Part shown: positions 14,664-54,182 of the stretch, in pieces
How the letters are laid out: each line of letters begins with the position of its first letter
How positions within the stretch are numbered: the stretch's first letter is position 1
Origin: Schmidtea polychroa
Lineage: Eukaryota
Length of the DNA stretch: 64,000 nucleotides
Assembly: GCA_044892525.1 (NCBI GenBank)
Contig: CM097887.1
Coordinates: forward strand, 50,592,001-50,656,000
Direction: 5' to 3'
Notes under the pieces: model-generated
Seen by the model: only the letters and a program-made list of their open reading frames with translations
Told to the model about the DNA's origin: nothing
Database searches by the model: none
Position numbers and translations under genes: made by a program

Positions 14664-15068
14664 TTGATGACGTTAGCAAAAATTGGCAAACAACCACGAA
14701 TATTAATCCAACTAAATAAAAAGAGAGTGGAGGCTGTTGTGGATTCAGGATCAAGTCATACAATTATATCAGAAGAGATATTGTCGGCAAAGGAGAAAAG
14801 ACAAATAAAACCATCAAATAGCATAATCAGATCACTGTCTAAAAACGTATTGAGAATAATTGGAGAAATAGAAGTGGTACTTCTAATTGGTGACAGAAAG
14901 ATTACACATAACGTACAGATTATGGAAAAAAGCCCTGTATTGTGTTTGATTGGAATGGATGTACTGGAGCAGTTAGACGGAATCTCACTGGATTTTAAAA
15001 CTGGAAATTTGATCGTGGGAAAAAGTGGCGAAGTCATTCATAATTTAGGAGAAGTATTTCTCGAATAG
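14664..15068 (+). mobile_element. Ty3/Gypsy retropepsin (aspartic protease) remnant
   Basis: VEAVVDSGSSHTIIS active-site motif and CLIGMDVL motif. No RT or integrase found downstream; the sequence is interrupted by the array. Confidence 0.85.
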
Positions 15069-15228
15069 ATAAAAAGTTTGATTATTAAACTATTGTTGTG
15101 AAATTTGTTGTGATTGAGAATTTGTAAAGTGTAATAACAAATATACGTTTGGAAATCGGAGTTTATTGATTTGTCTAAACACGAGGAGTCAGAGTAACCA
15201 ACGATCAATCTTTTGTTATTATAAAACC

Positions 15229-15273
<45 letters not shown>

Positions 15274-16720
15274 GCAGCTTCTTGGGACTTTTCACTTTTC
15301 AATTATTTGTTTTATTTTTTAACTGTTTTGAATTTAATTATTTGTATATTTGGTGTATTTTTTATGATTTTTGCATTTTATATTTTCTGTTGCTGACTTG
15401 ACAGGTAAAAATACAAATATTTTTTTTTATTTACTAAATTTATTAATTATCGACCTTCTGGCACTACACGAGATTACAAACTCAAAATATTGTCATTTTT
15501 TAATAATAATCCAATGTTTTTCTACTTTATTAAAAGATTTGTAATTGTTTATCTATGTTCCAGTTCGGCGTGGTAAAAATCTGACAGCGTCAGCCACCGG
15601 CTACCATTTTCCACCCAGAAAAATATTGATTTTTACATTTTTCGAATTTTAATTAATTTTAACAATTTGTAATTTTCTATTTTAGAAATGTTTGTATAAC
15701 CCCAATTGTGTGCAGCTAATTCATATGTATTTTCCACCCTTTCGTGATTTGCAGTGCAAGAAAGATGGTTGCATGCTGACTCGAGTTTTGTTTATTAACA
15801 AACTCAGAAACCAAAATATATCTTGAGTAAAAATATTGTGTTGGGCAGCCAATAGCAAGCCGACATTTCCACGCTTGCTTCGTGTTCGTGTGGCAGGAAG
15901 AAAGAGATTTAGAGTCCCTTTTTAAATTGATTTATCTCGACTGAAAGGGGAATTAAATTAGAAATGAAAAAAAAATAAATTAAATTACTTGTAAGTCTCT
16001 CTGAGACATCAGCAAATAATAACAAAAGAAATTTGAGATAGTCGAAAAAAAAAATTAATTAAATTACGTGCAAGTCAGACATCGTCAGATAATTTTGAAA
16101 ATGAGATTTTGAAATATTTGGGGGAAAATTCTTTTAAAATAAAATGAATAAATAAACATCATTTTGTTATTGGAATTATTATTATTATTAAGATTAATAT
16201 TATTATTATTTCATATATTTATATCAGTAATGCCTTCGTATTTGTATCAGTCAAATAAAAATATTTTGTAAGTAGTTTATTTAGTATGTTGACGATAAAT
16301 TTTGTTAGTTGTCAATTAAATCGACTTATTTCTATATATCCTTGGAATTAGGAGATATTACTGGAACTAATTTAGAATAATGAATCAATTGTGCCTGTTC
16401 AGAATAAAAGTTGTGTACAATCGAATAAAAAAATTCTATCATCATATTAAAGCTTAGCTTTAGTTCATCACTCTATTGATTGCTTGGACTGTAAAATCGT
16501 CTGAAATTAATGTTATCAGTCTATTAATCGTTTAATGTAACAAAATTCCTTTAGTTATTTCAATTCTTGGTTTTGGGTATTGCATCTATATAAAAGAAAA
16601 AAAGAAAATTTTTTAAATTCCTGAGTTTCAAAATGTTTCCCTTGTTTTGACTAAAATGGCAACTCTTTAAACATAATTCAAACTTAATAATTATTATTAT
16701 CGTATGATAAATTGGAATTA

Positions 16721-17623
16721 TTAGGAACATGCAGATTCGAGGACGAATCTAAAGAAAAGGGGAGATATGTTGAAGTTCAACAGGAGAGGTACAGAAATGA
16801 GGTGAAAAATGAATAAAAACACCGAGTGAAGGTTTTATCCATCCACAAAGTTTTAAGCTCTTGCTCCAGGCTTTTATATTTTCCAACAGAAACATTGAAT
16901 TTGAAGGAGTTAAAAATTCTCGCCCGCTCAGGACCATGATTTTCAGTTTCTGCATTGAGTGCCAATCGAACAGAAGATCTGTCAGGAGATACACTATTGT
17001 GCTCAGATACATCACGTCCCCGTTTCTTGTGTTTACGGTGAACGTGCTTAATAGATCGCTGCTTTGAAGATACACGATCAATCTTGTCAGGAGTTCGCAC
17101 AGTGGGCACAGGTGAGCGAGACAGTACGGGAGATAAACTGTTTGAATCGCTGTGGTCGCTACGAGATATTTTAGGCATACTGGGAGATCGTCCCTCAGGA
17201 GTGTTATTATGTCGTCTAGAAGATCTCGCCACTCGGTGCCTTTAAGTAGATCATACATCATCGGTGATATCGGAATATCTTCCATTTTCGTTGTTTTCGA
17301 CACATTGACTTCCTGCCATAGATAATCGCAATTGTTTTGAAATTGTATATTTAAAAATGAATTACATATTACTTATTACCTCCAAATGCTTCAAGAACCA
17401 ATCCTAATCGAGAAGCGTGAGTTCCAATCAATAATGGATGACGTGTGTTATAGAATCGTTTATAACACTTAAACACGTCACTATCGATTTTAATATAAGC
17501 AGTATTCACTCCTTCTTTATTGCAAAAATAACTTGGCAATTGATAGGTTGGAAATCTTGTATTTGGATTTATAAAGTAATTATTAATATCAATTAAAAAT
17601 TTTTTTATAACTTCTTCAGACAT
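16721..17623 (-). pseudogene. Predicted 3-exon gene (~253 codons) with a basic S/R-rich central region, two in-frame stops; copy 1
   Basis: Exons 17623-17380, 17312-16823 and 16748-16721, joined in phase by GT-AG introns of 67 and 74 nt (the second has a strong pyrimidine tract). Stops at TGA 17253-17251 and TAA 17244-17242. Product includes RSSRRH..SRSP..HRKHKKRGR. Confidence 0.6.
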
Positions 17624-17640
17624 TACAATTCTAAACTAAA

Positions 17641-19609
17641 ATGGCTCGTATTTATAAGGGTGAGTATCACATGCCTGGTTACAATTTTTTGTGGCCCAGG
17701 CACAAATACTGACATATGATTGGATAAAACACAAGAAAAAAATCCTGTGCCTGGCTGCGAACCAGTTGATGAAATTGATTTACTGTGCCTACAACATGAC
17801 AAAGACTACAAGAGCAAGTCCACACGTGTGCGGCATGAATCAGATAAAAGATTAGTTGCTGACTTGCAGTTAATCACAGATGATTCACTATGAACTAGAC
17901 AGGTCTTTGCCAAACACGTAATTTTATTTACATTTCATTTGAAAATTTTTATAGAAAAATTAATGTTAACCAAAAATATGATGGATGAATTTATTAAAGA
18001 AAATCGTCCTGAAAAAACTACATTAGACGTTATGAAAAGATTTGCAAAAAATTTACAAACAACAGAAGCTATTAATGATTTAGTTAAATATAACTTTCGT
18101 ATGCAGCATAACACTGATATTTTAAAAAATAGTTTAAAAGGCAGAACAAAGCTTTATGTTAATGCAGGTGAAAGAATATTTGCATTGTACAGTGAACATA
18201 TACATCCACGAGTTATGTCATATTTGAGTAAATTAAAAGGTGATTTAGCAGTACCCGATGGCTTTAGGGCTTTATATCATTCCAATTCAATTAAATCTTT
18301 AACGAGCGATTTATTTCACCCTTTAAATCTAGGTCAAAAGTTCAAAAATACTACAGGTAATTATATTAACAGATCTGTCATTACTCCTCAGGTCACAAAG
18401 ATTTTAACCATGTTTAGACAAAGATCTTTTTATAAAGGTATTGTTTTCAGATATGGTGGAACAGCATCAGATTTAATTGCTCAGGCTGGTATAACGGGGA
18501 GTCATTTAGCAGCAGAGCATGTATGGGAAACTTTCGACCCACATAGTATAAATCCCGATCCCCGAGAACATATTTATGAAAGATATTCTGAAGAAGAAAT
18601 GAATAATTTAAAACCTTTAAGTGAACATGAAGGGTATTTTGACTATAGTGAATATTTATATCCAGATAGAGATTTTTTTTATAGTTTTCATAGAGATTAT
18701 GACTATGTTAATCCATTAGAAAACACTGTTCCAAATTATTTCGGCAAACAATATCAATATTTTTTAACAAAAGCTCAACATTTTGTTAAAGAATTAAGAA
18801 AAGAAAATTATAGTGTTAATTATCCCTGGAAGATACAAGATATAAAAGACTTAATGAGTGGTAATTATGTATTAAATAAATTATTTACAGATAATCCTGG
18901 TATGTTAGAACAGTTTCATATTACTTCTAAAGGTAATATAACAAAGTTTTTAACATCGGCTATGTTTCAAGCACATAAAACAATGGAATTACCAGATTAC
19001 GACTCTAAAGACCCTCAGAAAGAACTATATGAATATGTACGTTTGAGATCTGTAGAAGAACAATGAAAAATTAATCCTTATGACACATATAATCCTGGTG
19101 AACCTAATTCGTGGTATGCATGGGCATCTGATGGTAAACAATATAAATGGACTGTCACTTCTTTTAGACATTATTGGAACCCCAGTACCAGACGTTTTCC
19201 TAGGAAATTACCCATTTCAGCGCTTTCAAAACAACAAGTCAATGATAAATTTACACAGTACCTTCATAGTTTTAATAATAATAAATTAAAATATAATTGG
19301 TTACATGGTCGTGGCGAAGGCAAGAATAAAGATATTCGCCTCCTCAACCGGGGAGAGTTAGAGATATTAAGATATCATTATCAATTAAACCATCATCAAT
19401 CGATTGAACACACTAACTGGAAGGAAGCAACAAAAGAACAACTAACGCAATACATACGCAAAATGCCTAGAAACATACCTGTTAAGATAATAAATGAAAT
19501 ACATCATAAAGATTTAACCAATCATATATTAAATAGTCACAAAGAACATGTCGAGAGCACTAGGGGTTCTGTATATACTGAACAAGCTATAAAATCATTA
19601 GGGCACTAG
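17641..19609 (+). pseudogene. Disrupted ~655-aa protein with N-terminal parvovirus VP1/adintovirus-type phospholipase A2 domain; copy 1
   Basis: MARIYKGEYHMPGYNF-(+1 T in T6 run 17685-17690)-CGPGTNTDI*LD..PVDEIDLLCLQHDKDY..RHESDKRL. The same frame runs through TGA 17717, TGA 17891, the 375-aa ORF and TGA 19064 to TAG 19607-19609. Confidence 0.85.
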
Positions 19610-19738
19610 CAATTTCAGGAGGAATAGCCGGATATCTGTCGTAAGGTAGCGGTATAGTAGCATAGAACCGAGTAGCCAGAGTGAATAATTTTGTATATAA
19701 TAAATCTGTAAATATCGGTGTATATACACAATAATATT

Positions 19739-19876
19739 AAACAGTTAAAAAATAAAACAAATAATTGAAAAGTGAAAAGTCCCAAGAAGCTGCAGATATA
19801 TATATATATATATATATATCTGCAGCTTCTTGGGACTTTTCACTTTTCAATTATTTGTTTTATTTTTTAACTGTTT
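19739..19876. repeat. Perfect 138-bp palindrome: right TIR + (AT)12 + left TIR (junction 1/2)
   Basis: 57 + 24 + 57 nt, fully self-complementary. Confidence 0.97.
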
Positions 19877-21268
19877 TGAATTTAATTATTTGTATATTTG
19901 GTGTATTTTTTATGATTTTTGCATTTTATATTTTCTGTTGCTGACTTGACAGGTAAAAATACAAATATTTTTTTTTATTTACTAAATTTATTAATTATCG
20001 ACCTTCTGGCACTACACGAGATTACAAACTCAAAATATTGTCATTTTTTAATAATAATCCAATGTTTTTCTACTTTATTAAAAGATTTGTAATTGTTTAT
20101 CTATGTTCCAGTTCGGCGTGGTAAAAATCTGACAGCGTCAGCCACCGGCTACCATTTTCCACCCAGAAAAATATTGATTTTTACATTTTTCGAATTTTAA
20201 TTAATTTTAACAATTTGTAATTTTCTATTTTAGAAATGTTTGTATAACCCCAATTGTGTGCAGCTAATTCATATGTATTTTCCACCCTTTCGTGATTTGC
20301 AGTGCAAGAAAGATGGTTGCATGCTGACTCGAGTTTTGTTTATTAACAAACTCAGAAACCAAAATATATCTTGAGTAAAAATATTGTGTTGGGCAGCCAA
20401 TAGCAAGCCGACATTTCCACGCTTGCTTCGTGTTCGTGTGGCAGGGAGAAAGAGATTTAGAGTCCCTTTTTAAATTGATTTATCTCGACTGAAAGGGGAA
20501 TTAAATTAGAAATGAAAAAAAAATAAATTAAATTACTTGTAAGTCTCTCTGAGACATCAGCAAATAATAACAAAAGAAATTTGAGATAGTCGAAAAAAAA
20601 AATTAATTAAATTACGTGCAAGTCAGACATCGTCAGATAATTTTGAAAATGAGATTTTGAAATATTTGGGGGAAAATTCTTTTAAAATAAAATGAATAAA
20701 TAAACATCATTTTGTTATTGGGATTATTATTATTATTAAGATTAATATTATTATTATTTCATATATTTATATCAGTAATGCCTTCGTATTTGTATCAGTC
20801 AAATAAAAATATTTTGTAAGTAGTTTATTTAGTATGTTGACGATAAATTTTGTTAGTTGTCAATTAAATCGACTTATTTCTATATATCCTTGGAATTAGG
20901 AGATATTACTGGAACTAATTTAGAATAATGAATCAATTGTGCCTGTTCAGAATAAAAGTTGTGTACAATCGAATAAAAAAATTCTATCATCATATTAAAG
21001 CTTAGCTTTAGTTCATCACTCTATTGATTGCTTGGACTGTAAAATCGTCTGAAATTAATGTTATCAGTCTATTAATCGTTTAATGTAACAAAATTCCTTT
21101 AGTTATTTCAATTCTTGGTTTTGGGTATTGCATCTATATAAAAGAAAAAAAGAAAATTTTTTAAATTCCTGAGTTTCAAAATGTTTCCCTTGTTTTGACT
21201 AAAATGGCAACTCTTTAAACATAATTCAAACTTAATAATTATTATTATCGTATGATAAATTGGAATTA

Positions 21269-22171
21269 TTAGGAACATGCAGATTCGAGGACGAATCTAA
21301 AGAAAAGGGGAGATATGTTGAAGTTCAACAGGAGAGGTACAGAAATGAGGTGAAAAATGAATAAAAACACCGAGTGAAGGTTTTATCCATCCACAAAGTT
21401 TTAAGCTCTTGCTCCAGGCTTTTATATTTTCCAACAGAAACATTGAATTTGAAGGAGTTAAAAATTCTCGCCCGCTCAGGACCATGATTTTCAGTTTCTG
21501 CATTGAGTGCCAATCGAACAGAAGATCTGTCAGGAGATACACTATTGTGCTCAGATACATCACGTCCCCGTTTCTTGTGTTTACGGTGAACGTGCTTAAT
21601 AGATCGCTGCTTTGAAGATACACGATCAATCTTGTCAGGAGTTCGCACAGTGGGCACAGGTGAGCGAGACAGTACGGGAGATAAACTGTTTGAATCGCTG
21701 TGGTCGCTACGAGATATTTTAGGCATACTGGGAGATCGTCCCTCAGGAGTGTTATTATGTCGTCTAGAAGATCTCGCCACTCGGTGCCTTTAAGTAGATC
21801 ATACATCATCGGTGATATCGGAATATCTTCCATTTTCGTTGTTTTCGACACATTGACTTCCTGCCATAGATAATCGCAATTGTTTTGAAATTGTATATTT
21901 AAAAATGAATTACATATTACTTATTACCTCCAAATGCTTCAAGAACCAATCCTAATCGAGAAGCGTGAGTTCCAATCAATAATGGATGACGTGTGTTATA
22001 GAATCGTTTATAACACTTAAACACGTCACTATCGATTTTAATATAAGCAGTATTCACTCCTTCTTTATTGCAAAAATAACTTGGCAATTGATAGGTTGGA
22101 AATCTTGTATTTGGATTTATAAAGTAATTATTAATATCAATTAAAAATTTTTTTATAACTTCTTCAGACAT
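21269..22171 (-). pseudogene. Predicted spliced basic S/R-rich gene, copy 2
   Basis: Matches copy 1 at +4548. Confidence 0.6.
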
Positions 22172-22188
22172 TACAATTCTAAACTAAA

Positions 22189-24157
22189 ATGGCTCGTATT
22201 TATAAGGGTGAGTATCACATGCCTGGTTACAATTTTTTGTGGCCCAGGCACAAATACTGACATATGATTGGATAAAACACAAGAAAAAAATCCTGTGCCT
22301 GGCTGCGAACCAGTTGATGAAATTGATTTACTGTGCCTACAACATGACAAAGACTACAAGAGCAAGTCCACACGTGTGCGGCATGAATCAGATAAAAGAT
22401 TAGTTGCTGACTTGCAGTTAATCACAGATGATTCACTATGAACTAGACAGGTCTTTGCCAAACACGTAATTTTATTTACATTTCATTTGAAAATTTTTAT
22501 AGAAAAATTAATGTTAACCAAAAATATGATGGATGAATTTATTAAAGAAAATCGTCCTGAAAAAACTACATTAGACGTTATGAAAAGATTTGCAAAAAAT
22601 TTACAAACAACAGAAGCTATTAATGATTTAGTTAAATATAACTTTCGTATGCAGCATAACACTGATATTTTAAAAAATAGTTTAAAAGGCAGAACAAAGC
22701 TTTATGTTAATGCAGGTGAAAGAATATTTGCATTGTACAGTGAACATATACATCCACGAGTTATGTCATATTTGAGTAAATTAAAAGGTGATTTAGCAGT
22801 ACCCGATGGCTTTAGGGCTTTATATCATTCCAATTCAATTAAATCTTTAACGAGCGATTTATTTCACCCTTTAAATCTAGGTCAAAAGTTCAAAAATACT
22901 ACAGGTAATTATATTAACAGATCTGTCATTACTCCTCAGGTCACAAAGATTTTAACCATGTTTAGACAAAGATCTTTTTATAAAGGTATTGTTTTCAGAT
23001 ATGGTGGAACAGCATCAGATTTAATTGCTCAGGCTGGTATAACGGGGAGTCATTTAGCAGCAGAGCATGTATGGGAAACTTTCGACCCACATAGTATAAA
23101 TCCCGATCCCCGAGAACATATTTATGAAAGATATTCTGAAGAAGAAATGAATAATTTAAAACCTTTAAGTGAACATGAAGGGTATTTTGACTATAGTGAA
23201 TATTTATATCCAGATAGAGATTTTTTTTATAGTTTTCATAGAGATTATGACTATGTTAATCCATTAGAAAACACTGTTCCAAATTATTTCGGCAAACAAT
23301 ATCAATATTTTTTAACAAAAGCTCAACATTTTGTTAAAGAATTAAGAAAAGAAAATTATAGTGTTAATTATCCCTGGAAGATACAAGATATAAAAGACTT
23401 AATGAGTGGTAATTATGTATTAAATAAATTATTTACAGATAATCCTGGTATGTTAGAACAGTTTCATATTACTTCTAAAGGTAATATAACAAAGTTTTTA
23501 ACATCGGCTATGTTTCAAGCACATAAAACAATGGAATTACCAGATTACGACTCTAAAGACCCTCAGAAAGAACTATATGAATATGTACGTTTGAGATCTG
23601 TAGAAGAACAATGAAAAATTAATCCTTATGACACATATAATCCTGGTGAACCTAATTCGTGGTATGCATGGGCATCTGATGGTAAACAATATAAATGGAC
23701 TGTCACTTCTTTTAGACATTATTGGAACCCCAGTACCAGACGTTTTCCTAGGAAATTACCCATTTCAGCGCTTTCAAAACAACAAGTCAATGATAAATTT
23801 ACACAGTACCTTCATAGTTTTAATAATAATAAATTAAAATATAATTGGTTACATGGTCGTGGCGAAGGCAAGAATAAAGATATTCGCCTCCTCAACCGGG
23901 GAGAGTTAGAGATATTAAGATATCATTATCAATTAAACCATCATCAATCGATTGAACACACTAACTGGAAGGAAGCAACAAAAGAACAACTAACGCAATA
24001 CATACGCAAAATGCCTAGAAACATACCTGTTAAGATAATAAATGAAATACATCATAAAGATTTAACCAATCATATATTAAATAGTCACAAAGAACATGTC
24101 GAGAGCACTAGGGGTTCTGTATATACTGAACAAGCTATAAAATCATTAGGGCACTAG
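22189..24157 (+). pseudogene. Disrupted PLA2-led ~655-aa ORF, copy 2
   Basis: Same frameshift and three TGA codons as copy 1. Confidence 0.85.
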
Positions 24158-24286
24158 CAATTTCAGGAGGAATAGCCGGATATCTGTCGTAAGGTAGCGG
24201 TATAGTAGCATAGAACCGAGTAGCCAGAGTGAATAATTTTGTATATAATAAATCTGTAAATATCGGTGTATATACACAATAATATT

Positions 24287-24424
24287 AAACAGTTAAAAAA
24301 TAAAACAAATAATTGAAAAGTGAAAAGTCCCAAGAAGCTGCAGATATATATATATATATATATATATCTGCAGCTTCTTGGGACTTTTCACTTTTCAATT
24401 ATTTGTTTTATTTTTTAACTGTTT
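24287..24424. repeat. Perfect 138-bp palindrome (junction 2/3)
   Basis: Same structure as 19739-19876. Confidence 0.97.
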
Positions 24425-25816
24425 TGAATTTAATTATTTGTATATTTGGTGTATTTTTTATGATTTTTGCATTTTATATTTTCTGTTGCTGACTTGACAG
24501 GTAAAAATACAAATATTTTTTTTTATTTACTAAATTTATTAATTATCGACCTTCTGGCACTACACGAGATTACAAACTCAAAATATTGTCATTTTTTAAT
24601 AATAATCCAATGTTTTTCTACTTTATTAAAAGATTTGTAATTGTTTATCTATGTTCCAGTTCGGCGTGGTAAAAATCTGACAGCGTCAGCCACCGGCTAC
24701 CATTTTCCACCCAGAAAAATATTGATTTTTACATTTTTCGAATTTTAATTAATTTTAACAATTTGTAATTTTCTATTTTAGAAATGTTTGTATAACCCCA
24801 ATTGTGTGCAGCTAATTCATATGTATTTTCCACCCTTTCGTGATTTGCAGTGCAAGAAAGATGGTTGCATGCTGACTCGAGTTTTGTTTATTAACAAACT
24901 CAGAAACCAAAATATATCTTGAGTAAAAATATTGTGTTGGGCAGCCAATAGCAAGCCGACATTTCCACGCTTGCTTCGTGTTCGTGTGGCAGGGAGAAAG
25001 AGATTTAGAGTCCCTTTTTAAATTGATTTATCTCGACTGAAAGGGGAATTAAATTAGAAATGAAAAAAAAATAAATTAAATTACTTGTAAGTCTCTCTGA
25101 GACATCAGCAAATAATAACAAAAGAAATTTGAGATAGTCGAAAAAAAAAATTAATTAAATTACGTGCAAGTCAGACATCGTCAGATAATTTTGAAAATGA
25201 GATTTTGAAATATTTGGGGGAAAATTCTTTTAAAATAAAATGAATAAATAAACATCATTTTGTTATTGGGATTATTATTATTATTAAGATTAATATTATT
25301 ATTATTTCATATATTTATATCAGTAATGCCTTCGTATTTGTATCAGTCAAATAAAAATATTTTGTAAGTAGTTTATTTAGTATGTTGACGATAAATTTTG
25401 TTAGTTGTCAATTAAATCGACTTATTTCTATATATCCTTGGAATTAGGAGATATTACTGGAACTAATTTAGAATAATGAATCAATTGTGCCTGTTCAGAA
25501 TAAAAGTTGTGTACAATCGAATAAAAAAATTCTATCATCATATTAAAGCTTAGCTTTAGTTCATCACTCTATTGATTGCTTGGACTGTAAAATCGTCTGA
25601 AATTAATGTTATCAGTCTATTAATCGTTTAATGTAACAAAATTCCTTTAGTTATTTCAATTCTTGGTTTTGGGTATTGCATCTATATAAAAGAAAAAAAG
25701 AAAATTTTTTAAATTCCTGAGTTTCAAAATGTTTCCCTTGTTTTGACTAAAATGGCAACTCTTTAAACATAATTCAAACTTAATAATTATTATTATCGTA
25801 TGATAAATTGGAATTA

Positions 25817-26719
25817 TTAGGAACATGCAGATTCGAGGACGAATCTAAAGAAAAGGGGAGATATGTTGAAGTTCAACAGGAGAGGTACAGAAATGAGGTG
25901 AAAAATGAATAAAAACACCGAGTGAAGGTTTTATCCATCCACAAAGTTTTAAGCTCTTGCTCCAGGCTTTTATATTTTCCAACAGAAACATTGAATTTGA
26001 AGGAGTTAAAAATTCTCGCCCGCTCAGGACCATGATTTTCAGTTTCTGCATTGAGTGCCAATCGAACAGAAGATCTGTCAGGAGATACACTATTGTGCTC
26101 AGATACATCACGTCCCCGTTTCTTGTGTTTACGGTGAACGTGCTTAATAGATCGCTGCTTTGAAGATACACGATCAATCTTGTCAGGAGTTCGCACAGTG
26201 GGCACAGGTGAGCGAGACAGTACGGGAGATAAACTGTTTGAATCGCTGTGGTCGCTACGAGATATTTTAGGCATACTGGGAGATCGTCCCTCAGGAGTGT
26301 TATTATGTCGTCTAGAAGATCTCGCCACTCGGTGCCTTTAAGTAGATCATACATCATCGGTGATATCGGAATATCTTCCATTTTCGTTGTTTTCGACACA
26401 TTGACTTCCTGCCATAGATAATCGCAATTGTTTTGAAATTGTATATTTAAAAATGAATTACATATTACTTATTACCTCCAAATGCTTCAAGAACCAATCC
26501 TAATCGAGAAGCGTGAGTTCCAATCAATAATGGATGACGTGTGTTATAGAATCGTTTATAACACTTAAACACGTCACTATCGATTTTAATATAAGCAGTA
26601 TTCACTCCTTCTTTATTGCAAAAATAACTTGGCAATTGATAGGTTGGAAATCTTGTATTTGGATTTATAAAGTAATTATTAATATCAATTAAAAATTTTT
26701 TTATAACTTCTTCAGACAT
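25817..26719 (-). pseudogene. Predicted spliced basic S/R-rich gene, copy 3
   Basis: Matches copy 1 at +9096. Confidence 0.6.
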
Positions 26720-26736
26720 TACAATTCTAAACTAAA

Positions 26737-28705
26737 ATGGCTCGTATTTATAAGGGTGAGTATCACATGCCTGGTTACAATTTTTTGTGGCCCAGGCACA
26801 AATACTGACATATGATTGGATAAAACACAAGAAAAAAATCCTGTGCCTGGCTGCGAACCAGTTGATGAAATTGATTTACTGTGCCTACAACATGACAAAG
26901 ACTACAAGAGCAAGTCCACACGTGTGCGGCATGAATCAGATAAAAGATTAGTTGCTGACTTGCAGTTAATCACAGATGATTCACTATGAACTAGACAGGT
27001 CTTTGCCAAACACGTAATTTTATTTACATTTCATTTGAAAATTTTTATAGAAAAATTAATGTTAACCAAAAATATGATGGATGAATTTATTAAAGAAAAT
27101 CGTCCTGAAAAAACTACATTAGACGTTATGAAAAGATTTGCAAAAAATTTACAAACAACAGAAGCTATTAATGATTTAGTTAAATATAACTTTCGTATGC
27201 AGCATAACACTGATATTTTAAAAAATAGTTTAAAAGGCAGAACAAAGCTTTATGTTAATGCAGGTGAAAGAATATTTGCATTGTACAGTGAACATATACA
27301 TCCACGAGTTATGTCATATTTGAGTAAATTAAAAGGTGATTTAGCAGTACCCGATGGCTTTAGGGCTTTATATCATTCCAATTCAATTAAATCTTTAACG
27401 AGCGATTTATTTCACCCTTTAAATCTAGGTCAAAAGTTCAAAAATACTACAGGTAATTATATTAACAGATCTGTCATTACTCCTCAGGTCACAAAGATTT
27501 TAACCATGTTTAGACAAAGATCTTTTTATAAAGGTATTGTTTTCAGATATGGTGGAACAGCATCAGATTTAATTGCTCAGGCTGGTATAACGGGGGGTCA
27601 TTTAGCAGCAGAGCATGTATGGGAAACTTTCGACCCACATAGTATAAATCCCGATCCCCGAGAACATATTTATGAAAGATATTCTGAAGAAGAAATGAAT
27701 AATTTAAAACCTTTAAGTGAACATGAAGGGTATTTTGACTATAGTGAATATTTATATCCAGATAGAGATTTTTTTTATAGTTTTCATAGAGATTATGACT
27801 ATGTTAATCCATTAGAAAACACTGTTCCAAATTATTTCGGCAAACAATATCAATATTTTTTAACAAAAGCTCAACATTTTGTTAAAGAATTAAGAAAAGA
27901 AAATTATAGTGTTAATTATCCCTGGAAGATACAAGATATAAAAGACTTAATGAGTGGTAATTATGTATTAAATAAATTATTTACAGATAATCCTGGTATG
28001 TTAGAACAGTTTCATATTACTTCTAAAGGTAATATAACAAAGTTTTTAACATCGGCTATGTTTCAAGCACATAAAACAATGGAATTACCAGATTACGACT
28101 CTAAAGACCCTCAGAAAGAACTATATGAATATGTACGTTTGAGATCTGTAGAAGAACAATGAAAAATTAATCCTTATGACACATATAATCCTGGTGAACC
28201 TAATTCGTGGTATGCATGGGCATCTGATGGTAAACAATATAAATGGACTGTCACTTCTTTTAGACATTATTGGAACCCCAGTACCAGACGTTTTCCTAGG
28301 AAATTACCCATTTCAGCGCTTTCAAAACAACAAGTCAATGATAAATTTACACAGTACCTTCATAGTTTTAATAATAATAAATTAAAATATAATTGGTTAC
28401 ATGGTCGTGGCGAAGGCAAGAATAAAGATATTCGCCTCCTCAACCGGGGAGAGTTAGAGATATTAAGATATCATTATCAATTAAACCATCATCAATCGAT
28501 TGAACACACTAGCTGGAAGGAAGCAACAAAAGAACAACTAACGCAATACATACGCAAAATGCCTAGAAACATACCTGTTAAGATAATAAATGAAATACAT
28601 CATAAAGATTTAACCAATCATATATTAAATAGTCACAAAGAACATGTCGAGAGCACTAGGGGTTCTGTATATACTGAACAAGCTATAAAATCATTAGGGC
28701 ACTAG
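26737..28705 (+). pseudogene. Disrupted PLA2-led ~655-aa ORF, copy 3
   Basis: Same lesions, plus two A>G changes (27596 S>G, 28512 N>S). Confidence 0.85.
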
Positions 28706-28981
28706 CAATTTCAGGAGGAATAGCCGGATATCTGTCGTAAGGTAGCGGTATAGTAGCATAGAACCGAGTAGCCAGAGTGAATAATTTTGTATATAATAAA
28801 TCTGTAAATATCGGTGTATATACACAATAATATTACATATAATACCCGTATGGAAACCATAAATGTCATAACAATAAAATTAAGCGAAAAATGAAAAATA
28901 ATAACTAAATAACGAACGAACGTAGAATATAAACACCAACTTGATAATATTATTATTTAGAAAAAGACACAAGAAAGAACA

Positions 28982-29281
28982 GTGACCCCAAACAATACAC
29001 CAACAGTACGAGTCGACAAAGGTTGTAAAGAAATATGGAGTAAAGTAATGTGCCAATTAGCAAATCGAACGAGAAATTACATAGAAGAGGCGAGGGAATG
29101 GGAATTCCATCAATCCCAGTGGTTAATTCAAAAATTGAGGGCAGAGTCGGAAGCCTGCAAAAGAGCCGCAAAATGGTCGGCATTAGAGAATACCCGGCAA
29201 GAAGCACACTGCCACTATTTAAAGCAGTTGGTAAGATATTTTATGGAGAACTCTTTAATATTAACTTACTTGATAGTTTAA
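28982..29281 (+). CDS. Hypothetical small helical protein of unknown family
   Basis: GC-richer 99-codon ORF with protein-like composition; non-ATG start in the ORF track; no motif recognised. Confidence 0.3.
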   Translation: MTPNNTPTVRVDKGCKEIWSKVMCQLANRTRNYIEEAREWEFHQSQWLIQKLRAESEACKRAAKWSALENTRQEAHCHYLKQLVRYFMENSLILTYLIV

Positions 29282-34392: not shown

Positions 34393-37300
34393 ACCCAGAA
34401 AAAGCTTCTGATCAAATGTGGAACTGTAATAAATCACGATTGTACATATGATGCTGATGTATTAATTGAAAATGGCAAAATTGTGAATATTGCAAATAAT
34501 CTTGAAGATCCATCAGCTGAGTGCATAGATGCTACTGGTTGTTTTGTGATTCCAGGTAACTTAATAATAAAGTTATTGATTTGATTCTGTTACGTAATCT
34601 TAATTACAATTTATATATAAAAAATATTTTAATTTGAACCCATAGAAAATTTTTTTATTTTAATAGATTGCACATATCTGAGTTGATATAATGAAATCGT
34701 GCAGGGATAGTTAATTTGACCTATGTTGATTTAATGTATTTATTTATGTATACATTTAGAAAATATTCAAATTAAATTACACGGCTGATAGACTTTTGAT
34801 AGTGAAAATAGTTGCAGGAATTGTAACTCTTAGTGTGATTCACAAGCAGCACTAATGGCATTTATTGAAAATCAGTAGTCACATAAATTTTATGTGTAGA
34901 GAAATTTTTAAAGTAACCGTTTCTATTTTAAGATCATTAAAAATTTTGCGATTTGTTTAATTTATATTATTGACAGTCTATGGCTTACACTTTCCATAAT
35001 ATCTAAGTGAATATGTTTGATTTCTGTTAAGATGCTGAAGTAAAACATTTCTATAGATAGTGATATTAAATTTATTTCTTCAAGGGAAATGTTGATAATT
35101 TTATTTTTTCCCGTGAGCCATGCTTTTATTCTGCCAATCAGAAGCCACAATGCTAGATGGCTCACTTCTTCCCATTGTGGCTTCAAAACATTTATTTAGT
35201 TATTTGTATATTGTAAAATAATGCATTTCATTTTAAAATTAGGAGGAGTAGACGCAGAAACATATTTCGCCGCCAAAAGAGGTGGTATTGTAAGTCCAGA
35301 AAATTATTTCTCCGGTACAAAGGCTGCGATATATGGTGGAACTACCACTGTCGGTAATTATTTATCTCAATACTAATATTTATTTTTAATATAATGTAAT
35401 TATTTAGTTAACTGTCTTGAAATAATCAAGGATGAATCTTTGAAAGAGAAATATGAAATTGAGAAGGAAATAATTTCTAAGGAAATTGTGTGCAATCTGG
35501 CTGTACAGCTCTGTTTGCCGGAAGTTAATGATACTATTAAATCACAATTTTATGAATTACTGCAATCTAAATCCGTTGTCCCGTTGGTCAGATTATCAAC
35601 TGTGGATAAAGGTTGTCATTGTGTGAGAATCGATGATCAAGAACTGTATGATGCATTGTGCTGGTGTAGAGATAATTCTGTGCTACCAACCGTGCATGCT
35701 GAAAATGATAAGATGGTTGCAATTCTTGAGAAAGAATTACTAGCTATTGGGATAACTGGTCCTGAAGGTCATTATTTATCTAGACCCGAAAAGGTAAGTT
35801 GCTTTAATATGAGCTTTGATTTTATGTAGCTCTTTTTTTATTTTTTTAAATACACTTTGAAAAGGCATTGCCGAAAATTTGTGAATATCAAAAACATCGA
35901 TATATTTACTGGTTCATAGTCAAGCTTTTTAATAAATACAATATTTATGATGCCGATAATAAGGTCATTAATAATAATTTATTATGATAATAATTAATAA
36001 TGATAATGTTAATGAAAAAATTAAGTGATAATTTAAGTCTTTTGATGTGAATAATGTATATAATGAAAACATTTTCAACTATAAGATAGTCCTTGTCAAT
36101 CTCCTGGAATCTAGTATTCCTCTTCCCAAAAATACATCTCGATTTTTCTTTTTTGTCATTTTTCCTACTTTTCATTGGTTAAAAATATAATATAATGATA
36201 TACTTTCTTTTTCTGAAGAATCTTTAAAAATTTTATTTAAAATTAAAATCAAATATCCTCTAAAATTCAAAATGAAACACCAACCAAAATTTTTAAAGCT
36301 TCTATAATTCGGCCATAGAAGCATATTTTAGTGAAAAAATATTTATAAAATAAAGCTTACAATAACTATTTCTATACGCGATTTAAATATTTTAATATAT
36401 GTCAATTTTGATCTTTATTCCTATCTTTTAAAAGCATATTTCCTAAAATTTTTATATTATTTTAATTATTGTTTTATAATTTTTTTTAATATCAGTTATT
36501 TTCAAGGTCAATGACAACAGATCAAATTGATGATTTCTTTAGTATTGATTGTTGGCCGTCTATGTCTAATGAGAATTGCTTCTTTGAATCTGACCTTTTT
36601 TTGGATGTTTCCATTGGCTACGATTTCGATTGAAATATTTTTTCGTTCCTTCCTTGGTTGACATTGTTGGAGATGTCTGTATAACGACAATTTCCACCAA
36701 GATATAGATGTTCTTTAACTATTTGGTACAAGGTCCTGAGTGTACTTCCAATGTATATTTCCTTGCATACACTGCACGTGATGCAGAAGACAATGTTTTT
36801 TCTAAAGCACATATCTTTCGGTCTCTGTCAATTTTCCATTATGCAATTATTTTCTTTATTTGTGTTGTTGGCCAGGGCTTTTCTCAATATCCAAGATTTA
36901 TGTGCTATCGGAATTGGAAGACCGGTGCGTTTAAGTTCTTTCAGGATCTTGGAGTCAAGTATGTTGATGAATGGAACATTCAGATAGAAATATTTCTTTT
37001 TTGTGTAATCTCCCTAGATCTTTTTGGTTTTGGATTCATTTTTTCACTGTCCTTACTATGATATCCGTTTCTGTGTAGGATTTTATTAAAATTTGATTGC
37101 TGTTTAAAGTTCTCGTTTTCTTCAGTGCATCGATTGGCTATCCTTTGTTTCTCGTTTTTTATGACATGTACTTTCTGTAAATATGGAAGCGCTGATCTTT
37201 CGTGCATAAATATTTATTTGTGAGCTGCTTTTCTGTAGAACCCGTATGTTGGAGTATTTGTTTCTATTTTAATTCTTTAATCCAATAAATTGAGGGATCC

Positions 37301-39927
37301 ATTTTCTTTTGGACATTCGATTTCAAACTTAATATCTCAGTGAGCTGCATTGAATGTATGAAATATATTTTAACAAATTTAATTAGAAGTATGTATGGAG
37401 AAACTCATCGGGAACAAAATAATCAAGAAAAAATTTTGAAAGCGTATTTGAATAACCACCCAAAAGAACTAATCTACGAAGTACAAAGACATGTTTTCAT
37501 GACAGCAGGAGCACACTATTCTCTATGATTTTTTCATTAAATACATTCGCAGCAAAAGGCTTAAATTATCACTTAATTTTTTTAAATAATAAATGCTGCT
37601 ACCAAGAAATCATCACTTAATAATTATAATAATAATAATTAGATTAATAACAATAAGTTTTCTATTGATTAACATCCTTCGCAATGATGATTACAGTAAT
37701 GAGATCAAGCATGCAAATGACATGATAAGGGACCAGGATAGTGATTATTCTCGCTGTGATAATACTATTAATGATATTAGCAAAATAATAATAATAATAA
37801 AAATCGCCATTCGTACATCTTTTTCACTATATATTTCGATGACATCACTATCATCATCAGGTTACCTACAATCACGACGGATGAATAACTATTCTATATT
37901 GATAATATATAAACAAATAAATTTTTAAATTATAAATAACAATTTTAAACAATTATTTTTAAAAATAATTTCCAACACTTAATTATTTTAAACTTTTAAA
38001 ATTATTTAAAAATATTAATTTAATTATTTTTTATATATTTAACATAACTATTATTAATATACATCAACATACAAAAACTTAATTAAAAACATTCAATACA
38101 TACGTATTCACTGTATTCTGCACATTGATTTTAGGATTAAAATTTCTTTCTAATAATGCTTCACATATCACACGCTCTAAACAATTATCAAAATTTTTTG
38201 ATAAGATTTTAAAATCCGACATTCCTAATTCTCTCATACTGACTTTATTATGATCCTTAATATTGGACACTCCCTTCGGTCGACAGTGTTTTTGAACTCG
38301 AGTACAGAGATAACGGGAAGTCTCTCCAAAGTCTCCATTATGTGAATTGATAAACGAGATCCGAACACAAACCAGTTTTTAATTTAATTAATTAATTTTT
38401 TGTTATCAAAAAAAATGATTATATGATAAAAGTAGGTCCTTGTCGAAATGTTCTATCTAATTTTACTTCAACCTTTGAAAGAAATGACAATATTATCTCA
38501 TATTCCACGAAGCTTCAATAATCATTACATCAATTTGATGAATTAGTTTTGCAACCTGTGAGATGTTAAATATTTGTATATTCTAATTTTAATTTATTCA
38601 TTTTTTAAGCATGAATGTAAAATCAGTTCACACTTCAATAAAATTACAGTGATCTTCTTTTACCATAGCACTCAAATGGAAATTATTCGAAGATTAAAAA
38701 AATTAGTGAAATGTTATTTCTTTTATGTTTCTTCGCTAGTTGTCTTTTACATATTATTACAATTTTCTTAGTTCATTTTTGATATATGTCACAGAATTAA
38801 TTTAATTCAGGTTGAGGACGAAGCAGTTTTTCGTGTTTTGACTATAGCGGAAATGGTGAAATGCCCAATACATTTTGGTAAAGTCTATGCAAAATCGTCT
38901 CTTAATAAAATAATGGACTGGCAGAGGAAGAGTTCAAATACAATTGTTTGTGGAACAAGTCTTGTGGCTGTCGTTCACAACGCCGAGAAATATCGAGATC
39001 CAAATTGGAAGGTAGCAGCATCATTCGTCACCATGCCAGCATTAAAAATGAATAAAACTACTGAATCTCAATGTACAGAATTACTTGAAGCAGTTGCGAG
39101 TAAAAAAATAAATCATGTTGCTTCCTCGCATTTAGTTTTTGATATGAAGCATAAAGCTAGTGGCAGAAATGATTTCCGCTGCATAATTCCTGGTACTAAT
39201 GGAGTTCAATATCGAATGAAAATTCTATGGGACAAAGCTGTGGTACTTTTCATTTTTACATTTTTCTAATAATTTTAATGTGACTAAGAAATCTGGTAGA
39301 ATGGAACCGACATCATTCGTCAATTGTGTAAGCACAACACCAGCAAAATTGGCGAATATTTATCCTCAAAAGGGCACGGTATCTATTGGATCTGATGCTG
39401 ATATAATTGTTTGGAGGGGTGATGGTATGTCAAATAACCATTTTGAGGCCGGCGATATCAACGTATTCGAAGACATGATTTGCCATAGTGGTCCCAAATA
39501 TGTAATTGTTAATGGAATAGTCGTTCTAAATCATGAAGGGAATTTCACTGCCTCTAAAGGCTCTGGTCAAATTGTTTCACCTTCGTCTGAAACAATGAAT
39601 TCTTATTTCCAGAAACAACTTATAAATTACAAACTGTCACATGAAATCGAAAAGAAAATTGCACGGGAACCCTATGACGGTCCTGTCATAGATCCTAACA
39701 GCGATAACAAAGAAGAAAAGCATGTTCTCTATTCTCACATGGTCAATAATGATGTTTATAAACGAGGTGGACCGGCAGAAGATAAAAAAGGTTGTTTAAA
39801 ATTATTTTCATTTTTTATTATAGTAACCATTCTAGAAGCATTACCTCCTGGTCAAAGAGTAATTAGAACTTCAGTGAAAACGGCTCAGCCTCCAGGTGGT
39901 TCAGCGCAAGCAAGTTGGTGGGGATAA
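34393..39927 (+). CDS. unc-33: CRMP/UNC-33-like (dihydropyrimidinase family, non-catalytic); exons 34393-34555, 35243-35353, 35408-35793, 38811-39242, 39289-39790, 39836-39927; start exon not resolved
   Basis: LLIKCGTVINHD..IDATGCFVIPGGVD, GTKAAIYGGTTTV, VHAEN, HYLSRPE, TTPAKLANIYPQKGTVSIGSDADIIVW and C-terminal QPPGG; GT-AG introns in phase. Confidence 0.9.
36150..37330 (-). mobile_element. Penelope-like element fragment (RT C-terminus + GIY-YIG endonuclease), decayed, in CRMP intron
   Basis: CITCSVCKEIYIGSTLRTLYQIVKEHL; inverted copy of 52720-54010. Confidence 0.85.
37820..37870 (-). ncRNA. Candidate Penelope-type minimal hammerhead ribozyme
   Basis: Minus strand reads CCTGATGA-TGATAGTGATGTCATC-GAAA-TATATA-G: CUGAUGA and GAAA core, short stem II and palindromic stem III. 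It lies downstream of a GIY-YIG C-terminal fragment. Stem I is imperfect. Confidence 0.5.
38060..38330 (-). mobile_element. Penelope-like GIY-YIG C-terminal fragment (second family)
   Basis: DFKILSKNFDNCLERVICEALL..FNPKINVQ; inverted homologue at 57690-57870. Confidence 0.7.
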
Positions 39928-51314: not shown

Positions 51315-54151
51315 AAAGGTGAACCAATTTTGATACCAATAAATATAGCAGAAACTTTAGTGAATACGGTGAAGACGACATCGATGAAGTGTGATATGAG
51401 AGGTTCTTTTAGTGATTTAACCATTGCCTCGTTAAACGAAAATAATATCAATCGGAATTCAATGAGAAAGAGAAAATATCCTAGTAAATCTATGAAATGT
51501 CTGGCAATTCCCTTTGCAGTTATAATCAACAGGAACACATAGTATATAAGATATGAGAATGATTTCTCTGTCACTGAGATGTTTGTAAGCAGCTTTGAAG
51601 AATTATATATTGTTAGCGCAGGCGATGTTCTAAATGCCTTTTTAAGATTTGCGATCAAACTCATTTAATTATTTGACAAATCTCTACAATAAACAGAGAT
51701 CCATACTAACAATATGGTAGAAAGGTTCTGGCGAATACCAAACCACATGAGTGAAATTGTGTGGATATTATAAAATATTTCCCCACATTTTTTATTATTT
51801 AACACAATTTACAAATTATATATCCTTACAAACATTAAGATTTACGACACAATTCGATTGGTGTCAGTGGAGGGAAAGAAATACTTAACATATTCGAAAA
51901 GAATCGAACATTGTCAAAGATACAAATTCTCGGAAATAATATCCCAATGGATATAATCAAAAATATTGGTAAAATATATTCTGGTAAATCAGCAACCTTG
52001 ATTATTCGGGCTCAGATAATCTTGCCAGTAGAAATGCAGAAATCTCTCAAGCCAATGAAAGATTGAATTCCCGGTCTGATAGAAATGGGAAGTTGATTAA
52101 TTATGAAAATACGAGAAAATTACAAACCTTGGATTTGCTCGATAGAATAGATCAACAAAACAACGGATTGAGAATGAGCGATAAGAAAAGCTTTTCGAAA
52201 ATTATTCAATTGGAGAAATTGTTAGATGAAAGAAAACAGAAATGCCAACAATTGAATGCCAAGTTTGTTTAATTATTTTATTCTAATAAATTTAGCCGTT
52301 GAATTAATTTTGGCTTTCAGTATCAATTTAACGGTCTGATATCCTCATCAAATTGTCTCTTTTTTGTGAATATTTTACGGATTTTTTATGCTGTTACAAT
52401 CCTTTACATCGCATTCTTCTTCATTAACTTCAATAATAATAATAATAATAATAATAATAAACAACTTGTTTGATTGAATAATAATATTTATTCAATAACA
52501 TTTATATATTGAATATTCATAGATGATAATTATTAAATCAATAATAATTCAAATTTGAATTTTACTATTAATAATCAATAATTATTATTATTAATTATGT
52601 TTTTTTTATTTTTTAAATATGATATTTATATAAATCAAGGTATGAAAACAAAATATGAATATAATAAAAATAATAATAATAAATGATAATAAAAATAAAT
52701 AAATAATAATTGACCCAAAAGATGCTATTAAATGTTTTTAAAAAAATTAAGCGAAACCAACTTGTTAATAAATGAAATTAATACCGAGAATATCACCAAA
52801 CTTCTTACTGTTATCCTTGAAAACACCTATTTTACCTTTGAAATAATAATATATAAACAAGTTAAATATCTGCCAATTCGTTTTAACATCTCAGGATTAT
52901 CAGCAATTAACCTTATGGATAACCTCGAATGGCCGCCTATGAAGACCATATAATACATCGGGTTCTACGCAAGATATGTAGATAATATCTTTATTACGAC
53001 CAAGAGTTTAAAAAAGCAAAGAAATATATCATTTATTCAATGCAGCTCACCGAAATATTAAGTTTAAAATCGAATATCCGGAAAAATGGAACGCTCAATC
53101 TACCGAGCTTAAAAATTAAAATAGAAGTAGATACTCTAACCTACGGATTCTACAAAACCCAGCTCACAATGTTTATGACCAAAGATCAGCACTTCTATAC
53201 TTACAGTAAATGTCATAAAAAGCTAGAAACAAAGGATATCCAATCGATTCACTGAGGAAAATCAGAACTATAAACAGCAAATCAACTTCAATAAAGTCCT
53301 ACACAGAAACAAATATCACAGTAAGGACATTGAAAAAATGAATTCAACCCCCAAAAAGATCTAGGGATAAAACACAAAATAAGAAGAAATATTTTATCTG
53401 AATATTCCATTCATCAGCGACATACTCGATTTCAAGATCCTGAAAAAACTTAAACGCACTGGCCTTTCGATTCACATAGCACATAAATTTTGGACATTGG
53501 GAAAAGCTCTGGCAAACAGCACAAAAATAGAAAACAACTGCATAATGAAAAACTGCTTTCGAAAAAATGTATACAAAGAAATATACATTGGAAGTACGCT
53601 CAGGACCTTGCATCAAAGAGTTAAAGAACACCTAGATCCCGGTGGAAAATCCTCGGTATACATACATCTCGAAAAAGAGAAAAGAAAGAAAAAATATTTT
53701 AATTGAAATCTTAGTCAATAAAAACACCCAAAAGAAAAATGTCAGATTTAATGAAGCAATTCTCATCATAAACAACCGGCCAACAATCAACAATTGCGTA
53801 TATAAATAGTTATTGGAAACTATATTTTTATAAATATTTTATGATATTATTTATTAAAACAAGTTACTATAAGCTAATTATAGAAGCTTTAATAACTTGA
53901 AATTTTTTTATTGCTTTGTTTTGAATTTTAGAGGATATTTGATAAAATTAATTTCTAAACTCTTCTAAAAAGTTTATTTTTAACCAATGAAAAGTAAGAA
54001 AAAGGAAATAAAATTGAAGATCAAAAGCATTTGAAAATAGAAAAAACTAAATTCCAGGAAATTTCCAGAAAATCGCAGCAAAAGGTTTAAATTATCATTT
54101 AGTTGTTTAACAATTAATTAATGTTGCTACCAAGAAATCATCACTTTATAC

Positions 54152-54182
<31 letters not shown>

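Follow-up and report, generated by a model that had tools for sequence, protein, structure and literature searches.

A tandem array in Schmidtea polychroa probably formed by local amplification of a truncated parvovirus-like fragment lying among host repeats

A 64-kb stretch of the Schmidtea polychroa genome (assembly GCA_044892525.1, contig CM097887.1; C3:50,592,001-50,656,000; hereafter "the window", meaning the whole of this stretch) contains three near-identical units that carry virus-like sequence and that appear, at first sight, to be bounded by terminal inverted repeats (TIRs). The original prediction, made from the letters of the window, took the array to be an integrated concatemer of a 4.5-kb virus-like TIR element, which would belong to a multipartite linear DNA virus as a structural segment or satellite, or else be a non-autonomous TIR element mobilised in trans. 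The locus therefore raises the question of whether the repeated unit is an element with ends of its own or a piece of chromosome that contained viral sequence when it was copied. Here we argue for the latter. Our reading, to which we assign a probability of about 0.82, is that a truncated fragment of a parvovirus-like virus with a CRESS-type Rep (CRESS denoting circular, Rep-encoding viruses with single-stranded DNA) lay amid host repeats, and that a 4.5-kb stretch including it was amplified in tandem and in place by fold-back at an (AT)n run.

Results

Three head-to-tail copies are joined at palindromic seams

The array repeats every 4548 bp and has three head-to-tail units, which start at positions 15272, 19820 and 24368 of the window (the genome searches reported below cover 781 Mb). 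As predicted, the units are near-identical: over the 4467 bases that they share, copies 1 and 2 differ at 2 sites, copies 2 and 3 at 2 sites, and copies 1 and 3 at 4 sites. The four variable sites read AAAA in copy 1, GGAA in copy 2 and GGGG in copy 3, which is the pattern of a recombinant middle copy. Each unit is made up of 1.55 kb of host repeats, 2.78 kb of virus and 0.14 kb of host sequence.

The perfect 57-bp TIRs that had been ascribed to every unit are present in copies 1 and 2, in which the right end is the perfect inverse of the copy's own first 57 bp and is followed by (AT)12, but copy 3 has no right inverted repeat and ends at 28835 inside a dispersed host repeat. Because the inverted 57 bp and the (AT)12 are followed by the first 57 bp of the next unit, each seam is a perfect 138-bp palindrome. 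The seam folds into a perfect hairpin (z = -23.8), and the joint has a 1-nt overlap (microhomology). The parts of the array are as follows.

15234..15271, no strand: (AT)19 microsatellite, the putative fold-back site
19739..19876, no strand: seam 1, a perfect 138-bp palindrome (inverted 57 bp, (AT)12, 57 bp)
19820..24287, + strand: copy 2
24287..24424, no strand: seam 2, a 138-bp palindrome identical to seam 1
24368..28835, + strand: copy 3, whose right end is without the inverted repeat

The ends of the unit lie in host repeats

The apparent TIRs are the seam between tandem copies, not the ends of a virus or transposon. Sequences at and around the edges of the unit are listed here.

14667..15068, + strand: retroviral-type aspartyl protease open reading frame (ORF), a remnant of a long terminal repeat (LTR) retrotransposon outside the unit (Pfam RVP, E=3.4e-8)
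15061..15236, + strand: 3' part of a young LTR-like repeat in the left flank, with dispersed copies 96-98% identical
15272..15328, + strand: the "57-bp left TIR", which opens a ~197-bp piece of an old host repeat with dispersed copies
15272..16823, + strand: 1.55-kb non-viral mosaic of degenerate host repeats, with dispersed matches of 71-98%
19663..19739, + strand: first 77 bp of a ~475-bp host repeat, cut at the seam, 100% identical to 28759-28835
28759..29234, + strand: the same ~475-bp host repeat, whole, straddling the end of copy 3

The whole ~475-bp repeat marks unbroken original chromosome sequence at the end of copy 3. Outside the window, 27 of its 41 matches pass straight through the position that corresponds to 28835, and in five of the six loci printed the homologous sequence is colinear across that position. 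The right edge of the unit thus cuts a host repeat that is left whole after copy 3, a finding that supports local duplication.

At the left edge, the homologs of the ~197-bp repeat piece are 74% (L078, over query positions 1-197), 75% (L080) and 83% (L079) identical to it. Homologs of the 57-bp end sequence are internal parts of another repeat, and an AT run precedes none of the three inspected. Searches for other segments with the same ends, which the original prediction had proposed, returned the array itself: the first 29 bp (as a 29-mer with 2 mismatches) and a 20-mer (with 1 mismatch) each had five matches in the genome, all five in the array. The unit is therefore not a TIR element, because the inverted repeat is confined to the two seams inside the array, comes from a host repeat and is found nowhere else in the assembly. 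A further repeat (L040) matches the mosaic that makes up the left part of the unit as far as 16823.

The LTR-like repeat of the left flank ends at the (AT)n run, and the other copies inspected likewise end at AT/TA (5/5). The outer ends of the array carry an AT run on the left and none on the right, and hence show no target-site duplication. The simplest arrangement before amplification would put the LTR first, then the (AT)n run, host repeats, the viral fragment and a host repeat. We note that the protease ORF, of which the genome holds many copies at 98-99% identity, runs straight into the 3' part of the LTR-like repeat through a TCGA-containing stretch common to both (14667-15236). This joint is apparently an internal deletion of a young LTR element, and no 5' partner of the LTR was found in the window or in the 10 kb upstream.

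Each unit keeps only the divergent start region of the viral Rep and VP genes

The stretch 16821-19600 (coordinates of copy 1) is a truncated, inactivated endogenous fragment, 2.8 kb long, of a parvovirus-like virus; the closest DNA relative is 95% identical over 1.3 kb. What it retains is the divergent start region of Rep and VP, namely part of Rep, an overlapping frame that we call Alt, an 84-aa ORF and part of VP.

16821..17372, - strand: Alt frame overlapping Rep, ~185 viral codons (tblastn 38-92% in 11 of the 16 related loci tested)
16822..17313, - strand: N-terminal part of a CRESS-type Rep (predicted exon 1), truncated, with an S/R-rich basic extension and motif I
17369..17623, - strand: small viral ORF of 84 aa upstream of Rep (tblastn 35-89% in 11 of the 16 related loci tested)
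17641..19600, + strand: broken VP1-unique region, consisting of a phospholipase A2 (PLA2) domain and ~550 further residues, 57% to residues 19-660 of the 1130-codon VP frame of locus L021

Several claims about the coding content of the unit stand in part. The basic S/R-rich gene described in the original prediction does exist as a frame, but it is the N-terminus of a Rep, matching residues 1-164 of the Rep frame of locus L032 at 91% and that of L026 at 43%. Alignment with Viral_Rep proteins places a predicted motif I (FNSFKF) within it and shows it to be cut before motif II; compared with Pfam directly, Rep exon 1 gives only weak scores (E=0.08-0.18). The Alt ORF runs on beyond the viral part into host DNA, to 16752. 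The further claim that the unit encodes no replicase or transposase is correct insofar as no helicase, PolB, integrase or transposase was found in the unit, but not with respect to an HUH Rep, since this N-terminal piece with motif I is present.

The supposed ~655-codon PLA2-led ORF does contain a PLA2-like domain (17720-17890; Pfam PF08398, E=0.0035, short of the curated cut-off), but the frame (17641-19609) is not open: it has a frameshift near 17690, in the region of the PLA2 calcium loop, and in-frame stops at 17717, 17891 and 19064, and it closes at 19607. The assignment of this PLA2 to the viral type was upheld, PF08398 being the sole hit at E up to 0.1, with no match to cellular secreted PLA2 families. 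Similarity to the VP of L021 stops short of the capsid jelly-roll domain, at residue 660 of 1130. The ~550-residue VP1-unique stretch that follows the PLA2 domain (17894-19600) has no Pfam or Atlas match (best Atlas score for a 390-aa piece from the window 0.77, no family); it is 51-57% conserved with relatives, and among 150 listed matches only 2 reach past residue 190. What was read as an S/R-rich gene is thus a remnant of Rep, and the "structural gene" has no structural domain. We predict that the array yields no functional PLA2, Rep or capsid and cannot move by itself.

Relatives elsewhere in the genome reveal the layout of the parent virus family

A search of the genome with the unit gave 71 matches, and we examined 20 loci of 9.9 kb (numbered with the prefix L). 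Genes of the same virus family are present in 19 of the 20, Rep exon 2 in 11 and an NS1-type helicase in 7. Rep (with exon 2), helicase and capsid occur together in five loci (L021, L022, L026, L028 and L031), no locus holds the complete gene set whole, and L036 has only 29 capsid residues. L021 and L022 have the look of one locus assembled more than once, as have L023-L025, and counts out of 20 are therefore not independent.

The gene map of the family runs from a hairpin through the NS1-type helicase, Rep (on the opposite strand, with the overlapping Alt frame and the small upstream ORF) and VP to a second hairpin. The helicase ORF, of 233-237 aa, starts about 200-300 bp from the hairpin, which leaves no room for an HUH domain. 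It matches Pfam Parvo_NS1 (E about 1e-12), is of the SF3 type and has 52 matches in the genome; a word-index protein search with it gave no match. The HUH motifs reside instead in the separate CRESS-type Rep. A word-index search with Rep exon 2 yielded four protein matches, all of them Pfam Viral_Rep (best E=2.4e-17), and the alignment contains HUH motifs II and III together with SF3 Walker motifs; a scan of viral_contigs with the same exon gave three pattern matches, none of which was confirmed. All seven loci printed (L026, L028, L032, L033, L035, L036 and L038) have a GT..AG stretch of ~55-60 nt between the Rep exons, which we predict to be an intron lying between motifs II and III of Rep.

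The VP frame of L021 has 1130 codons and begins with PF08398 (E=1e-9); a word-index protein search with a 1128-aa VP gave no match. For the C-terminal 467 residues of the L021 frame, parvovirus capsids came top in profile, Foldseek and Atlas searches. The profile search hit 60-mer capsids in the PDB (best E=1.9e-4), and the Atlas score was 0.96 to VP1_2. Weighing against a parvovirus-like capsid domain are an Atlas recognition value of 1706, which is under the threshold, and the low confidence of the model used for Foldseek (mean predicted local distance difference test score (pLDDT) 42, template-modelling score about 0.3). A single-sequence fold reached a pLDDT of 29, and a single-sequence PDB search returned nothing useful. 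The three lines of search are each modest, yet they agree, and they suggest that the domain is parvovirus-like.

The termini of the relatives are GC-rich Y-shaped hairpins (folds with z = -8 to -15), and at the two ends of L026 the hairpin arms are in opposite order, that is, in flip and flop forms. The viral hairpin motif has 23 matches in the genome and none in the window. These Y-hairpins are unrelated to the 57-bp repeat, and the seam sequence is not common to them.

Some of the relatives lie in surroundings that we record in their own right. Clusters of inverted, rearranged viral copies occur at C3 28.088-28.117 Mb (L084/L026/L085), with more hairpins near 28.15 Mb, and at L021; nine of the hairpin matches are on C3. 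Such clusters resemble integrated replication intermediates, later caught up in large duplications. At L028:112-9392 (C1:8573.1-8582.4 kb) a hairpin-to-hairpin viral copy lies between parts of a Polinton-type polymerase region, with Endonuclease_7 to the left and DNA_pol_B_2 to the right; L027 adjoins TBP and A32 ATPase genes, and L023-L025 adjoin a double jelly-roll capsid gene and a PLA2 gene. The position of viral copies beside Polinton genes may be chance. A 500-codon open frame in L023 (2040-3539), L024 (5872-7371) and L025 (2216-3715) resembles the N-terminus of a bunyavirus-type L protein (Pfam L_protein_N, E=1e-10), and since it adjoins both the single-stranded DNA virus fragment and the Polinton genes, three virus types meet within 10 kb.

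Fold-back at an (AT)n run would account for the array

We propose that, after integration, a virus genome was reduced to the divergent Rep/VP start region, which would have removed both hairpin ends, the capsid domain, the NS1-type helicase and the catalytic and helicase part of Rep. The (AT)n run is self-complementary, and there a nascent strand, or a cruciform break, may then have folded back and copied 57 of its own nucleotides; rejoining 4.5 kb downstream at a 1-nt microhomology would have left a tandem duplicate with a palindromic seam. The third copy may have come from the duplicate by unequal crossing-over or re-replication, a derivation suggested by the identity of the two seams.

Read data bear on this proposal from both sides. 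Exact-match read contigs from 4 of the 15 listed runs were compared with copy 3. Four runs of one study contain 94-95% of the words, and no RNA run was among those listed as containing the sequence. The exact contigs start at 24395 (runs X1 and X2) and at 28806 (X2), each 30 nt short of a seam position. Such starts are what would be expected of forks in a 31-mer graph if the seam and the normal continuation are both present in the reads. Two runs of a second study (X5 and X6) contain 0.04 of the words and leave parts of the VP region uncovered, which is not evidence of absence.

A number of observations count against amplification of the kind that we propose. No strand-switch joint at 28835 is listed in the read contigs, so that the reads back the seam only indirectly, and the assembly may itself derive from the study that produced X1 and X2. 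The read contigs have G,G,A,A at the four variable positions, which is the state of the majority among the copies and is compatible both with three real copies and with identical ones that carry consensus errors. Depths in X2 are 20-53 inside the unit and 23 just outside it, which does not establish three copies, and the pre-duplication allele was not seen. Furthermore, all four differences between copies are A/G, three of the four in GG[A/G] contexts; they may be long-read consensus errors, in which case the crossover signature in copy 2 is void.

An assembly artefact is one alternative. The seam or the number of copies could have arisen if reads folded back at AT runs or if the assembly took an additional loop through a repeat of two copies, and identical seams centred on a self-complementary AT run, copies that are 99.9% alike, the missing strand-switch joint and a ratio of X2 depth inside to outside the unit of 0.9-2.3, never 3, all fit. 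We nevertheless consider an artefact improbable, given that the contigs of short reads stop exactly 30 nt ahead of each of the two seam positions and that a pure two-copy AAAA/GGGG array leaves the G,G,A,A state in both runs unexplained. If the array is real, the same head-to-tail order and identical, perfectly hairpin-forming seams could instead reflect excision of a circle, rolling-circle amplification (possibly with Rep and helicase, genes that abound in this genome, acting in trans on the 138-bp palindrome as origin) and homologous reinsertion. The viral hairpins, though, have no sequence in common with the seam, there are only three copies at a single locus, and template switching yields the same product without a helper; we regard the rolling-circle route as very unlikely.

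The two origins offered by the original prediction fare no better. A perfect 57-bp inverted repeat with AT flanks at copies 1 and 2, and a mosaic cargo, are what a non-autonomous Pack-type DNA transposon would show had it captured viral and host DNA and inserted in tandem at a TA-repeat target, but copy 3 has no right inverted repeat and the host repeat is unbroken there, and the end sequence has no other copy in the genome, its homologs being internal to another repeat. The Pack-type reading is thus largely refuted, and we give it very little weight. Least credible of these explanations is that a multipartite linear DNA virus left an endogenised structural segment or a satellite here. The PLA2 is indeed of viral type, Liu et al. 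mention a "PEVE small segment" (PMC3198968), and segmented viruses of the bidna class exist (PMC11071296). The unit, however, lacks the capsid jelly-roll, includes part of a Rep and is 37% host repeat, and the relatives are monopartite, holding Rep, helicase and capsid within a single pair of Y-hairpins that are GC-rich and have no relation to the 57-bp repeat. Local amplification by fold-back of a chromosomal stretch with a viral fragment in it is the reading that we retain.

Other features of the window

Open frames at 38772-39924 (+ strand) resemble, by eye, exons of a host gene, which we take to be of the dihydropyrimidinase/CRMP type. Long inverted repeats at 36545-38229 and 53008-57945, 16-19 kb apart and 77-91% complementary, are probably two opposed copies of a host repeat.

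Discussion

The array is best described as an endogenous fragment of a known kind of virus that was locally amplified; the locus is ordinary, and the parent virus family is the more interesting subject. Its value is as a pointer to the endogenous copies in this genome, which display the layout of a little-studied virus group with a CRESS-type Rep, a nuclease-less NS1-type helicase, a PLA2-led capsid protein and flip/flop hairpins. The locus also provides a caution: what look like perfect TIRs and TA target sites can be seams left by fold-back at (AT)n runs.

As a tentative suggestion, which we hold to be somewhat less likely than not, the parent virus may be a CRESS/parvovirus hybrid in which a spliced circovirus-type Rep nicks Y-hairpin telomeres to give the flip/flop ends, and a separate nuclease-less NS1-type helicase unwinds the genome or packages it into a capsid with an unusually long PLA2-led VP1. 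We found no published statement that a CRESS Rep resolves parvovirus-type hairpins, although the PEVE paper or the Repbase entry, both outside our coverage, may hold one. Were the suggestion correct, the endogenous copies would be the record of a living intermediate in how rolling-hairpin replication arose, with the window still a dead fragment. If a CRESS Rep does resolve the hairpins, it becomes possible to test the step by which rolling-circle replication gave way to the rolling-hairpin mode.

Comparison with known systems

Tandem duplications of the type formed by fork stalling and template switching or microhomology-mediated break-induced replication (FoSTeS/MMBIR) can carry fold-back (templated inversion) junctions. 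The array resembles them in the short, inverted, nearby copy at the seam, the 1-nt microhomology and the self-complementary repeat at the fold; it differs in that the amplified stretch contains an endogenous viral fragment, and the mechanism that we propose is drawn from one locus.

With the Parvoviridae the relatives share a PLA2-led VP1, a capsid domain with parvovirus top matches, Y-shaped flip/flop hairpins and a Parvo_NS1 SF3 helicase. In the strict sense of that family, a single NS1 with both HUH and SF3 was not found in the relatives, where the HUH is in the separate CRESS-type Rep. Neither the capsid domain nor the inter-segment termini of a bidna-type segment were found at the window unit. 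In PEVE, an extrachromosomal element of planarians, inverted repeats reportedly flank genes for a circovirus-type Rep and for a second helicase. Our literature search, whose coverage excluded Repbase reports and subscription papers, found no description of the present locus. Liu et al. (2011; PMC3198968) report numerous parvovirus NS-like sequences in Schmidtea mediterranea, named PIVE in Repbase and related to the PEVE of Girardia tigrina. Compared by these descriptions, the likeness is that of planarian virus-like sequences with a parvovirus NS1-like component, PIVE being in addition integrated and numerous.

A close counterpart is the group of parvoviruses with an auxiliary CressRep beside NS1, typified by Parvo3071, that is described by Buck et al. 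(PMC11071296), who also list unsubmitted endogenised parvo-like contigs from Schmidtea and Girardia. A CRESS-type Rep with HUH and SF3 is present in our family too, the window holding residues 1-164 of it, and the NS1 helicase and jelly-roll VP that were deleted from the window copy occur in the relatives only. One member, Parvovirus dugesia6041 (BK066653), is listed there as linear, of planarian source and 5710 nt long, with VP, an Alt frame, a short NS1 and a CressRep whose N-terminus carries a long extension (PMC11071296). Word-index protein searches with VP, Rep exon 2 and the short helicase gave no named hit to dugesia6041, PEVE or PIVE. By eye only, the Rep motifs of dugesia6041 and of the relatives match (Walker A GIGKTNFAL, DGVVxDDL and IKRR), and the VP motifs GTxxxxEW and YYPH line up. 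The virus differs from the family described here in its short listed VP, a separate "Cah" ORF and the absence of a visible PLA2 motif from its listed proteins, as against one ~1128-aa PLA2-led VP frame and a predicted Rep intron, and it differs from the window copy, which is a dead, truncated fragment. Planarian virus-like elements had been proposed as the apt comparison for this locus, and so they proved: the gene set of the family appears to match that of PEVE and PIVE, as these are described, and, by eye, that of Parvovirus dugesia6041.

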